NCBI GenBank assembly: GCA_017631385.1
Contig: JAGBTH010000068.1
Location: 1 to 51,022 of the forward strand
Origin: Kiritimatiellia bacterium
Lineage (GTDB): Bacteria; Verrucomicrobiota; Kiritimatiellia; RFP12; UBA1067
DNA: 51,022 nucleotides
Reading direction: 5' to 3'
A program made the translations under genes and the position numbers. The notes under the pieces were generated by a model that had not been told where the DNA came from, made no database searches, and saw nothing but the letters and a program-made list of their open reading frames with translations. Every line of letters starts with the position of its first letter. Positions within the stretch are counted from its first letter, which is position 1. Shown one piece after another: positions 27,574-31,718 of the stretch.

Positions 27574-29244
27574 TTACTTTTTCGCCGCACTCGCCAAAAG
27601 TTCTTTAGCGTGCTCACCAACAATTGGCATCGACGCCTCGCCACCGAGCATACGAGCAATTTCCTTAACGCGCTCCTTATCAACGACCTCTTTAATAGCC
27701 GTTAAAGTTCGCCCACCGACAACTGATTTCGAAACTACTAAATGCCGCGAAGCGAAAACAGCGCTCTGGGGTAAATGAGTAATCGCGATTACCTGGCGCT
27801 TTGAGCCTATAAGTCGCATTTTCTCACCGACCTGCCGAGCGACTTCGCCACCGACATTAGCATCAATCTCATCAAAAATAACAGTATCAGCCCCATCATT
27901 AAGCGCGAGTACGCTCTTTAGCGCTAACATAACGCGCGCTATTTCGCCAGAGCTCGCGATTTCGGCGAGTGGTTTCGCGCTCTCGCCGAGATTAGGCTCG
28001 AACATATAACAAACCTTCTCGCACCCGCCACTAGTAGGCTCAGTTTTCTCGAAATCGACATAAAACTTAGCCTTTAAAAACCCAAGATCGCGGAGCTGGC
28101 GCGTAACTAATCTAGAAAGTTTCTCACCCGCCATACTGCGCTCTTTAGAAAGTTTAGCGCCAACCTTTTTTACAGTCTCAAGCGCCGCGCTCTCAGCTTT
28201 ACGAAGTTGAGCGAGTTTAACATCAAACCCTTCAATCGAATCTAATCTCTCGCGTTTAGCCGATAAAACCGCCAAAAGCGCTTCAACTGTATTCTCGCCA
28301 TTTTTAAGGTACTTACGCTTAAGACGATTAATTATCGACAATCTCGCATCAAGCTCTTCTAATTCAGCTGGATCAGCATCGATTTTCGTCATCGCATCGG
28401 CGATTGCTCGCGAAAGCTCTTGAATCTTAATGGTCGCATCTTCAGCTTCATTAGCCCAATCGTCAGATTCTTTAAAATACTTTTTAAGACGATTAAATTT
28501 AGGCTGCAAAGAAATAAGACGCTCAGCTACGCCATTATCCCCACCTAAAACATCAGCTATGGAACTGGCGATTTCGACAATTTCTTCGGCATGAGCAGCA
28601 GCGGCATGACGCTCCTCAATTTCATCATCTTCTATCGTAAGTCTAGCCGCCTCTAACTCACCAACCTGATAACGAAGAAGATCTAATTCATCTTCTGACG
28701 CCGTAGACGAAAGTAGCGAATCTATCTCAGAGCGTTTCGCAGCTAACTCTCTCCACGCCTTAGAATATTCTTCTAAATCAATCTTGGCGCTCTTATCGAG
28801 CGTATGACGTTGAAATGATTCTTCTAATAAACTCTGATTAGCGCGAGCGCCATGAATATCTACTAAAACTCTAGCTAAATTTTTAAGTGTAGTTAAAGTA
28901 GTTCTCGAATCATTGACCCATACCTTACCGGCGCCAGAGCCAGAAAGTACGCGGCGAATAATAAGCTCGCCATCTTCACAATTAGGTAGCCCCGCATCAG
29001 ACAAAACAGAATTCACCAAGTCGCGCTTCTCGCCGACCTCAAATTCCGCTTCGATACGGGAATTCTCTTCACCATCACGAACAGAAGAAGCATCAGACCT
29101 GGCGCCTAAAGCTAGCCCAATAGCGCCCATAATAACGCTTTTACCAGATCCTGTCTCGCCCGTCAAAACATTAAGCCCAGGAGCGAAATCAACTTCTGCC
29201 TTTTCAATAATGGCAAGATTCGAAATAGAAAGCCGAGTAATCAT
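27574..29244 (-). CDS. recN: DNA repair protein RecN
   Basis: LTGETGSGKS, DIHG, ASSGEIARVMLALK, FDEIDANVGG, ITHLPQ, EIARMLGG. Confidence 0.97.
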   Translation of the reverse strand: MITRLSISNLAIIEKAEVDFAPGLNVLTGETGSGKSVIMGAIGLALGARSDASSVRDGEENSRIEAEFEVGEKRDLVNSVLSDAGLPNCEDGELIIRRVLSGSGAGKVWVNDSRTTLTTLKNLARVLVDIHGARANQSLLEESFQRHTLDKSAKIDLEEYSKAWRELAAKRSEIDSLLSSTASEDELDLLRYQVGELEAARLTIEDDEIEERHAAAAHAEEIVEIASSIADVLGGDNGVAERLISLQPKFNRLKKYFKESDDWANEAEDATIKIQELSRAIADAMTKIDADPAELEELDARLSIINRLKRKYLKNGENTVEALLAVLSAKRERLDSIEGFDVKLAQLRKAESAALETVKKVGAKLSKERSMAGEKLSRLVTRQLRDLGFLKAKFYVDFEKTEPTSGGCEKVCYMFEPNLGESAKPLAEIASSGEIARVMLALKSVLALNDGADTVIFDEIDANVGGEVARQVGEKMRLIGSKRQVIAITHLPQSAVFASRHLVVSKSVVGGRTLTAIKEVVDKERVKEIARMLGGEASMPIVGEHAKELLASAAKK

Positions 29245-29262
29245 TCACCAACACACACACAA

Positions 29263-29336
29263 TGGAGCGGGCGATGGGAATCGAACCCACGTAAGAAGCT
29301 TAGGAAGCTCCTATTCTGCCATTGAATTACGCCCGC
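29263..29336 (-). tRNA. tRNA with tRNA-Gly body and CCU anticodon (nominally Arg-AGG)
   Basis: GCGGGCGTAATTCAATGGCAGAATAGGAGCTTCCTAAGCTTCTTACGTGGGTTCGATTCCCATCGCCCGCTCCA; loop TT-CCT-AA; U73 discriminator. Confidence 0.92.
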
Positions 29337-29349
29337 GGGGAAACTTAAT

Positions 29350-29441
29350 TGGCGGAGAGAGAGGGATTCGAACCCCCGATACCCTTGCGGGTATGCATGA
29401 TTTCGAGTCATGTGCATTCAACCAGGCTCTGCCATCTCTCC
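29350..29441 (-). tRNA. tRNA-Ser(CGA)
   Basis: GGAGAGA acceptor, CATGA-CTCGAAA-TCATG anticodon arm, long variable arm ATACCC-GCAA-GGGTAT, G73, CCA. Confidence 0.96.
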
Positions 29442-29456
29442 ATGCAAGTGGCGAAT

Positions 29457-29486
29457 ATGATACCAAAACTCCCCCCTAAAAGTCAA
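29457..29486 (-). promoter_or_regulatory. Promoter for tRNA-Ser, tRNA(CCU) and probably recN
   Basis: TTGACT-N18-TATCAT with TG extension. Confidence 0.7.
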
Positions 29487-29504
29487 TACCCCCGACTAAC
29501 TAGA

Positions 29505-31718
29505 TTATGCCGTAATCGATAATAATCCCGAAAGCGATGTGCGGCGCTCGCGAACAGTATTCGTTTGGATCGCCTTATCTACCGCGTATGGAACTCCAAT
29601 AACCAAAACAAGTTTTTTGCCGCGCGTTATCGCTGTATATAGCAGATTTCGCTGAAGCATAACATAATGCTGAGTATGAACTATTACCACTACTGCAGGA
29701 TATTCACTACCTTGGGACTTATGAATCGTTGTAGCGTAAGCTAAAACCAGCTCGTCCAAATCGCCCGCATCATAACTAACTGGCCTACCATCAAATGAAA
29801 CTACCATCTTTCGGTCTAGGGGATCAACCGACTTAACAAATCCTGTATCGCCATTATAAACATCCTTATCGTAATTATTCCTAAGCTGCATTACTCTATC
29901 GCCAACCCGGAACGCTCCTCCAGCCCGAATTATCGCATCGCCCTTAGGATTAAGAGCCTTTTGAAGCTCAAAATTCAGATTCTCTGTCCCTAAAAGATTA
30001 CGTCGCATCGGCGTTAACACTTGGATATCCTCTAATGGTTTTAGACCGAACTTACGCGGGATGCGCTCTGTCATAAACTCTATCGCCCTTTTGACGCATA
30101 TCTCAGCGTCTTCGCAGCGTACAAAATAGAAATCACTATCACCTGAAGCGATTTCGAAAGGTAAGCCTTGATTTACATTATGAGCGTTGCGAACTATTAA
30201 GCCCGATACATCTTGACGAAAGATTAAATCCAACTTCGTTGACGCAATTGCGCCTGATGAGATAAAATCTCCTAGTACACTACCAGGTCCAACGCTCGGC
30301 AGCTGATCTGTATCGCCAACCCATACTACAGACGCACCATCGGGAATCGCCGATAATAAATTAGCCGCCAGTTTAATATCAATCATCGAAGTCTCATCAA
30401 AAATAAAGACATCACCCTCATACCTATTACTTTCATCGAAAGTAAAACGATTCGTTACAGGATTCCACTTTAAAAGCCTATGAATCGTCTGGGCTTCAAC
30501 ACCGACTGATTCTGTCATGCGCTTAGCCGCGCGACCTGTGGGAGCTGCGAGTACGACTTTAAGATTTCGTCTTTTATAAACCTCGACTAGCGCTCTAACT
30601 ATCGTAGTTTTACCAACACCAGGGCCACCTGTAATTATAGAAAACTTATTTTCTAAACACCGCTTTAGTGCGAGTGATTGGGCTGAGGCCAGATTAAACC
30701 CCGCTTTTGACTGCCACCATTCTAAAGCTTTATCAGCATCTATCGGCTTAAACGATGAAGGCGCAGCGAGAATGCGACGAACATTTTTAGCTACTTTACA
30801 TTCGGAGGCATAAATATGCCTTAAGCAAATCTTCCTTACTCCACCTTCTACATCCGCAGGTAGCGCTACTATACGCGAGGCTGTAATTTCATCTTCTAAA
30901 GCTGACGAGAGAATCTCAGTCGCTATTCCCGTAAGCTCGTTCGCATGCAAGAGTAGATCATTCTCATAAGTCCAGCAATGCCCCGCGTCTTCAGCCTCAG
31001 TTTCGAGCGTATACGATATTGTCGCGCGTGCGCGCAATGGCGAATCAGACGGAATACCAACCGAAAGAGCAATTTTATCGGCTGTAGCGAAGCCAATCCC
31101 CCAAATATCGCGGCACAACTGATAAGGATCACCCTTTATTATCGCTATTGCGTCTGGACCGTATTTACGCACAATTTTAGTCATTTTAGCGACGCTAATA
31201 CCATACGTCTGACCAAAAATCATACTCTCACGCATCGTTTCGTTGGCATGCCAACTCTTTCGAATCTGCTCTATTTTAGATCGACCTAATTTAGGAACTT
31301 CTGAAAGCCTCGCGGATTGATGCGATAAAACATAAAGCGTATCTTCACCAAATTTAGAAACTATGCGTTTAGCTAAAACCTTACCAATACCCTTAATAAG
31401 GCCTGAGGCTAAGTACCGTTCAATACCAACTAATGATTTAGGCGCCACGCACACTATTTCATCAGCCTTAAACTGACGACCGTGAACCTTATCCGAAACC
31501 CAACGCCCCTTAGCGGAAACTTCCTCTCCCTCCCACGCAGCTTGAGTTTTACCAACTATCGTAATCTCGCGCGCTCTAGCAAGTTCAAACTCCGAGGGAG
31601 GCTCTACATGAAGAACCGTATATCCATTCTCTTCGTTACGATAAACGACGCTTTTAATTACGCCGCCTACCGTTTCGAGCTCTTCTGTATTACCGCTATC
31701 TTTTGGAGTCGACGCCAT
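29505..31718 (-). CDS. recD2: ATP-dependent RecD2-like DNA helicase
   Basis: HGRQF, YLASGLIKGIG, ITGGPGVGKTT, APTGRAAKR, TIHRLL, TIHKSQGSEY, RNLLYTAITR. Confidence 0.95.
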   Translation of the reverse strand: MASTPKDSGNTEELETVGGVIKSVVYRNEENGYTVLHVEPPSEFELARAREITIVGKTQAAWEGEEVSAKGRWVSDKVHGRQFKADEIVCVAPKSLVGIERYLASGLIKGIGKVLAKRIVSKFGEDTLYVLSHQSARLSEVPKLGRSKIEQIRKSWHANETMRESMIFGQTYGISVAKMTKIVRKYGPDAIAIIKGDPYQLCRDIWGIGFATADKIALSVGIPSDSPLRARATISYTLETEAEDAGHCWTYENDLLLHANELTGIATEILSSALEDEITASRIVALPADVEGGVRKICLRHIYASECKVAKNVRRILAAPSSFKPIDADKALEWWQSKAGFNLASAQSLALKRCLENKFSIITGGPGVGKTTIVRALVEVYKRRNLKVVLAAPTGRAAKRMTESVGVEAQTIHRLLKWNPVTNRFTFDESNRYEGDVFIFDETSMIDIKLAANLLSAIPDGASVVWVGDTDQLPSVGPGSVLGDFISSGAIASTKLDLIFRQDVSGLIVRNAHNVNQGLPFEIASGDSDFYFVRCEDAEICVKRAIEFMTERIPRKFGLKPLEDIQVLTPMRRNLLGTENLNFELQKALNPKGDAIIRAGGAFRVGDRVMQLRNNYDKDVYNGDTGFVKSVDPLDRKMVVSFDGRPVSYDAGDLDELVLAYATTIHKSQGSEYPAVVVIVHTQHYVMLQRNLLYTAITRGKKLVLVIGVPYAVDKAIQTNTVRERRTSLSGLLSITA

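Follow-up and report, generated by a model that had tools for sequence, protein, structure and literature searches.

A glycine-type tRNA gene with an arginine anticodon in a Kiritimatiellia metagenome bin: rare strain mutation or assembly error

Introduction

When a tRNA gene read from a metagenome bin pairs the body of one isotype with the anticodon of another, does it report a decoding system, a mutation, or a mistake? The question is raised by one gene in a Kiritimatiellia genome (GenBank assembly GCA_017631385.1), on a contig of 51,022 nucleotides that was analyzed over its whole length and is referred to below as the window (contig C69). There, a tRNA that resembles tRNA-Gly(CCC) carries the anticodon CCU, which is complementary to the arginine codon AGG. 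The original prediction, drawn from the DNA letters of the window, offered four readings: a natural missense suppressor that makes AGG decoding ambiguous, a glycine tRNA recruited to arginine, a tRNA that needs editing at position 36, and a single-base variant or assembly error. It also held that a CCC anticodon in all close relatives would mark the CCU form as a private mutation or an error. The genome in question is a 74%-complete metagenome bin of 2.02 Mb in 183 contigs, with 44% G+C.

Results

ARAGORN labels the gene at 29263-29336, on the minus strand, as a 74-nt tRNA-Arg with anticodon cct. The Rfam tRNA family (RF00005; gathering score 29) matches it with 63 bits (E 2e-13), and the cloverleaf folds at −28.1 kcal/mol (z −3.35), a value that none of 200 shuffles equaled. 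Reading the sequence together with the Rfam alignment gives an acceptor stem with G1-C72, C2-G71 and G3-C70, discriminator U73, and an encoded CCA. The D loop has 7 nt (AAUGGCA), with C following G18G19 at position 20; the anticodon loop is UUCCUAA, and the variable loop has 4 nt. These calls confirm the cloverleaf, acceptor pairs, discriminator, D loop and anticodon loop described in the original prediction, and the likeness it had noted to tRNA-Gly(CCC) of the Escherichia coli glyU type was borne out in complete E. coli genomes at 86.5% identity over all 74 bases. The features of the locus are as follows.

29263..29336, minus strand: tRNA gene with a glycine-type body and anticodon CCU (ARAGORN and Rfam; 73 of 74 bases as in tRNA-Gly(CCC) of 16 relatives)
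29302, minus-strand gene, A on the plus strand: private base, U36 of the window tRNA; G (C36) in every aligned relative
29337..29349, minus strand: 13-nt spacer from tRNA-Ser to the glycine-type tRNA; its length varies from 1 to 23 nt among relatives
29350..29441, minus strand: tRNA-Ser(CGA), first gene of the tRNA pair (ARAGORN; Rfam 55.3 bits)
29457..29486, minus strand: sigma-70-like promoter, TTGACT-18-TATCAT with a TG extension, upstream of tRNA-Ser (10 of 12 matches)
27574..29244, minus strand: 556-aa open reading frame (ORF), putative recN as labeled in the original prediction (tblastn matches in relatives' loci around the same tRNA)

Sub-threshold Rfam matches also overlap both tRNAs, at 29281-29449 and 29353-29404, with sX4 scoring 35 bits (gathering score 70) and a plastid psbI-rps4 UTR family 37.5 bits (gathering score 68). 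Scoring so far under their gathering scores, sX4 and the two plastid UTR families that overlap the tRNAs are most likely tRNA look-alikes.

Which synthetase such a molecule should attract can be read against published identity elements. As given in the excerpted text of PMC9976931, bacterial GlyRS relies on U73, G1-C72, C2-G71, C35 and C36, while for bacterial ArgRS A20 is the strongest element, followed by C35, U/G36 and A/G73; Table 1 of the same source also lists U73 for some bacterial cases. The glycine and arginine elements that the original prediction had named agree with this excerpt. By such charging and decoding rules, which come from E. coli and Thermus and may not hold in this phylum, the window tRNA has the bacterial glycine traits U73, G1-C72, C2-G71, G3-C70 and C35, with U36 where C36 is expected. 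Among the arginine traits, it has C35 and one of the two bases accepted at position 36, while position 20 is C instead of A and the discriminator is U73 instead of A or G. What results is a glycine tRNA body joined to an anticodon complementary to an Arg codon, as in a missense suppressor.

The gene sits in a recognizable setting. At the promoter upstream of tRNA-Ser that the original prediction had proposed, a sigma-70-like site is present; the number of such sites is about that of shuffles (1 found against a shuffle mean of 0.8). Visual inspection places a TTGAC −35 box and a TA...T −10 box at the same position before tRNA-Ser in the 15 relatives with the Ser-Gly pair. Downstream, the putative recN ORF starts 18 nt past the 3' end of the window tRNA on the same strand, with a (TG)5 run in between. 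This junction is also present in a relative's locus (L011), and in the nearest relatives the same ORF follows tRNA-Gly(CCC). No terminator-like site was found in 29150-29600; tRNA-Ser, the glycine-type tRNA and the putative recN ORF may be co-transcribed.

We searched 40 related genomes (24 from the same genus and 16 from other families of the order) with the 74-nt tRNA and obtained a match in 36. From each of 29 genomes the top match, full-length in 27 cases and partial in 2, was taken as the ortholog; the top matches of G010, G017, G023, G026, G030, G031 and G040, at most 84% identical, were left out of the count. Three matches of about 80% identity, checked in other genomes, are tRNA-Gly(UCC) genes adjoining tRNA-Leu(CAA). 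In the alignment, the anticodon is CCC in 29 of 29 orthologs from gut Kiritimatiellia and CCU in none. Sixteen orthologs, two of them from another family, match the window tRNA at all of the other 73 bases. In more distant orthologs, T-stem pairs co-vary, as expected for a tRNA under selection. tRNA-Ser(CGA) directly precedes the gene in 15 of the 27 full-length loci, as in the window, and in 14 of these 15 relatives all 92 of its bases are identical to the window's. The window gene is therefore the ordinary tRNA-Gly(CCC) of its lineage, the second gene of a conserved tRNA-Ser(CGA)/tRNA-Gly(CCC) pair with a sigma-70-type promoter. A single transition is private to it, with U replacing C36 (G to A on the plus strand at 29302), and occurs in this assembly alone. 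With every ortholog reading CCC, the comparison gave the outcome that the original prediction had tied to a private mutation or an error.

Wider scans extended this picture. The query was an exact 51-nt stretch of the window spanning the anticodon, and its CCC counterpart was taken from a relative's locus (L002). The CCU stretch had no exact match among one genome each of 185,579 species and none in JGI metagenome contigs, whereas the CCC form had at least 120 matches in the species genomes and at least 120 in the metagenome contigs. Among the matches listed, genomes with the CCC stretch are mostly Kiritimatiellia (under the older labels Verrucomicrobiota/Lentisphaerae) from rumen and gut samples. 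In E. coli, 5,411 of 5,426 complete genomes have a tRNA-Gly that is 86.5% identical to the window tRNA. A CCU variant would score 87.8% there and rank first; none appeared, as the best 12 of 5411 reach at most 86.7%, and both sequences inspected are CCC. The CCU form is private to one assembly, and such alleles are rare in a species as well sampled as E. coli. In one complete E. coli genome (locus L168:31-104), the anticodon stem of tRNA-Gly(CCC) differs by a C-to-T change from that of another strain, so finished genomes do contain single-base variants of this tRNA.

We also looked for a second sighting of the strain itself. No conspecific contig was found among 285 other loci (289 less 4 from the same genome), whose flank identity to the window reaches only about 68-82%, with about 75% for long matches spanning putative recN. 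Conspecific contigs may exist outside the loci compared, as both collections held at least 120 matches.

The remaining tRNAs of the genome bear directly on what AGG means. Its tRNA-Arg genes have the anticodons ACG, CCG and UCU, together with a canonical 77-nt tRNA-Arg(CCU) on another contig (C76) that has A20 and A73. All four have A20, and their discriminator is A73 or G73; orthologs of the canonical tRNA-Arg(CCU) read CCU in 11 of 11 relatives' loci. The inventory suggested by the original prediction thus shows tRNA-Arg(CCU) and tRNA-Arg(UCU) to be present, and no other tRNA-Gly(CCC) to be assembled. Searched against the rest of its own genome, the window tRNA had no match at E ≤ 0.001 and so resembles none of the genome's Arg tRNAs.

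Codons in the window tell the same story. When 17 AGG codons from five window genes were compared with relatives, Arg occupied 58.6% of 203 aligned cells and Gly 5 of 203. The Arg share at other Arg codons in the same comparison was 66.8% for CGT and 36.9% for AGA, and since AGG behaves like these codons, it still means Arg. Four minus-strand AGG codons that had been cited for this purpose are indeed AGG in the contexts LRLNPG, FDARL, QRNRI and TIHRL (putative IspG, TruA, DprA and RecD2), and AGG columns align with Arg, which upholds the earlier claim that AGG is still Arg in the window. Across 801 long ORFs, AGG occurs 4.0 times and GGG 8.95 times per 1000 codons, a normal use of AGG.

Against this background, we consider it highly improbable that the tRNA reflects an evolved decoding change, whether AGG is read fully or ambiguously as Gly or the glycine tRNA was taken over as an additional tRNA-Arg(CCU). 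In favor of such a change are the anticodon and the lack of a second assembled tRNA-Gly(CCC), and nothing else. The CCC anticodon of all 29 orthologs, Arg-aligned AGG columns, normal AGG use and the intact canonical tRNA-Arg(CCU) and tRNA-Arg(UCU) all argue against it, as does the failure of the window tRNA to match anything else in its own genome. Reassignment of AGG to Gly is contradicted by the Arg and Gly shares at AGG, the retained Arg tRNAs and the absence of CCU from the relatives compared (0 of 29). Recruitment to arginine, one of the four readings proposed, is likewise not supported: the window tRNA lacks the A20 and the A/G73 found in all four Arg tRNAs of a genome that already has tRNA-Arg(CCU) and tRNA-Arg(UCU). 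We give almost no credence to RNA editing, in which U36 would be converted to C and a normal tRNA-Gly(CCC) restored. Identity-changing anticodon editing is known in marsupial mitochondria, and we know of no description of U-to-C editing of bacterial tRNAs. Every relative encodes C36 directly, so no editing system is expected in this lineage, and the proposal of editing at position 36 is not supported.

The glycine side of the inventory is thinner. The bin's only other Gly tRNA, Gly-UCC, lies on a 3.4-kb contig (C5; locus L155, 1-3438), which means that neither tRNA-Gly(UCC) nor tRNA-Gly(GCC) of the host itself is assembled. This contig holds nine tRNA genes (Leu-UAG, Tyr, Ala-UGC, Arg-ACG, Glu-CUC, Glu-UUC, Gly-UCC, Asn and Met) and a doubtful ARAGORN tmRNA call. 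The array was found in none of 25 relatives, in which a single Leu tRNA alone matches at about 80%, and its matches in a phage collection are tRNA-sized only; the contig resembles a tRNA array of phage type, or else a contaminant from binning. A search of the 74%-complete bin for PF02091, the family of GlyQ (alpha subunit of tetrameric GlyRS), gave no match. The organism may use a dimeric GlyRS, or the GlyQ gene may be unassembled.

Whether the base at 29302 is real was examined in Logan contigs, rather than raw reads, of four public runs (X1, X2, X4 and X5). The best runs, X1 and X2, held a 0.89 share of the sampled words of the stretch, and none was complete. Over 1,881 flanking bases (28300-29292 and 29413-30300), the contigs of X1 and X2 show 0 differences from the window, at a depth of 6-9. 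In all four runs, the contigs end at 29292 and 29413, which lie 30 bases inside each tRNA, as would follow from sequence common to many organisms. Position 29302 is covered in four of four runs by G only, at a depth of 52-122, and A occurs in no contig; these contigs break within the tRNA and are not tied to the strain. The G in the runs is from more abundant relatives that share the tRNA. Rare variants are lost from assembled contigs, and those of X1 and X2 also lack the spacer of the strain itself. The strain's path through the region was thus dropped, which makes the absence of A uninformative.

Two readings of the base then have to be weighed. That A is a real allele of the sampled strain seems to us an evenly balanced proposition. 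It is favored by the exact consensus nearby in X1 and X2, and by the reasoning that an allele absent from all relatives must come from the strain's own reads. The competing reading, to which we assign somewhat less than an even chance, is a sequencing or consensus error: the true sequence would be CCC, and A would have been introduced while a low-coverage bin was assembled through a tRNA common to co-resident species. Such an error would account for a gene that is one base away from 16 otherwise identical orthologs and for the lack of any independent CCU sighting in two collections that each hold at least 120 CCC matches. The disparity in depth between the strain and those sharing its tRNA implies that assembly graphs tangle here; the bin is incomplete and fragmented, and G-to-A is a common type of error. 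All four runs that hold the flanks have only G at the position, but the lack of A in their contigs carries no weight for the reason given above. The error reading must also contend with the faultless flanks and with a neighboring tRNA-Ser that has no private change. On shared paths, moreover, an assembler would be expected to pick the abundant G unless the strain's reads show A. Of the four readings first proposed, a single-base variant or assembly error is the only one to survive the uniform CCC of 29 relatives and the absence of CCU matches elsewhere.

Discussion

Taken together, our results describe either a rare mutation in one strain or a mistake of assembly, and no new genetic code or decoding system. 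If the base is real, the likely behavior of the tRNA can be sketched from identity elements. A tRNA with U36 would no longer read GGG and would pair with AGG instead, leaving GGG to tRNA-Gly(UCC), which is present in relatives and not assembled in this bin. Having lost C36, a glycine identity element, it would be expected to be a poor substrate for GlyRS, and ArgRS would hardly charge it because C20 and U73 replace A20 and A/G73. The mutant tRNA would then be mostly uncharged and would compete with the canonical tRNA-Arg(CCU), with a small insertion of Gly at AGG. The U36-A37 step should presumably also make the window tRNA a substrate for t6A37 modification.

On this analysis, the window tRNA would be a tRNA-Gly crippled by its mutation and, at the same time, a weak missense suppressor of the Arg-to-Gly kind, a transient and mildly harmful strain mutation rather than an evolved decoding device, and we see the case for this description as neither stronger nor weaker than the case against it. 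The natural missense suppressor of the original prediction is accordingly possible as a private strain allele and untenable as a lineage feature, CCU being found in 0 of 29 relatives. A stronger version, in which the only tRNA-Gly(CCC) gene of a wild strain reads AGG and inserts Gly at a measurable share of these codons, which number about 4 per 1000, appears unlikely. If true, it would give the E. coli glycine missense suppressors a natural counterpart and would imply proteome-wide Arg-to-Gly noise, perhaps with a mutator-like phenotype.

Either origin of the base would be instructive. A real U36 would be a natural, non-laboratory case of a glycine tRNA turned into a missense suppressor of an Arg codon, and would bear in a small way on the amount of mistranslation that wild bacteria can live with and on how tRNA anticodon shifts begin. 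An erroneous U36 would mark tRNA genes shared across a community as sites at which a single wrong base in a metagenome bin can look like an oddity of the genetic code. Mismatches between isotype and anticodon in metagenome bins call for a check at the level of reads before any interpretation.

Comparison with known systems

Several known tRNAs combine one identity's body with a foreign anticodon. The E. coli mutator alleles mutA and mutC are anticodon mutants of the glycine tRNA genes glyV and glyW; they read Asp codons and cause Gly misincorporation at a low level, and are reportedly the subject of a 1997 paper by Murphy and Humayun. The window tRNA resembles them more loosely, as a glycine tRNA with a single anticodon change through which Gly would be misincorporated at the codons of another amino acid, those of Asp in the case of mutA and mutC.

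Natural mistranslating tRNAs offer a second comparison. In the excerpted account of PMC10404621, a bacterial tRNA-Pro family with Ala, Thr or Asn anticodons pairs with ProRSx, and excerpts of PMC11415595 describe human tRNA-Ser and tRNA-Ala anticodon variants as natural mistranslating tRNAs. The window tRNA shares with both, as these excerpts present them, the body of one identity and the anticodon of another. The tRNAs in those accounts are conserved across species or segregate in many individuals, whereas the window variant is private to one assembly. As excerpted, they are also served by a dedicated synthetase, in the bacterial case, or by anticodon-blind synthetases; GlyRS, in contrast, reads the anticodon, and no partner enzyme is evident for the window tRNA.

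The trpA36 suppressors of E. coli come nearer. According to the excerpted part of PMC11212642, anticodon-mutant glycine tRNAs insert Gly at the Arg codon AGA of trpA36 and are poorer acceptors of Gly than the wild type by up to four orders of magnitude. As in those mutants, so far as the excerpt describes them, the anticodon of the window tRNA is changed at position 36, pairs with an AGR Arg codon and accompanies an intact glycine acceptor stem, and poor charging would be expected because C36 is a GlyRS identity element. Unlike the suppressors, which came out of laboratory selection and have been shown to insert Gly, the window tRNA is an unselected single observation in a metagenome bin, known from its sequence alone. 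A further comparison is with the ordinary tRNA-Gly(CCC) of gut Kiritimatiellia, of the glyU type, with which it shares 73 of 74 bases, the tRNA-Ser(CGA) partner and the promoter layout, and from which it differs in having U36 rather than C36.
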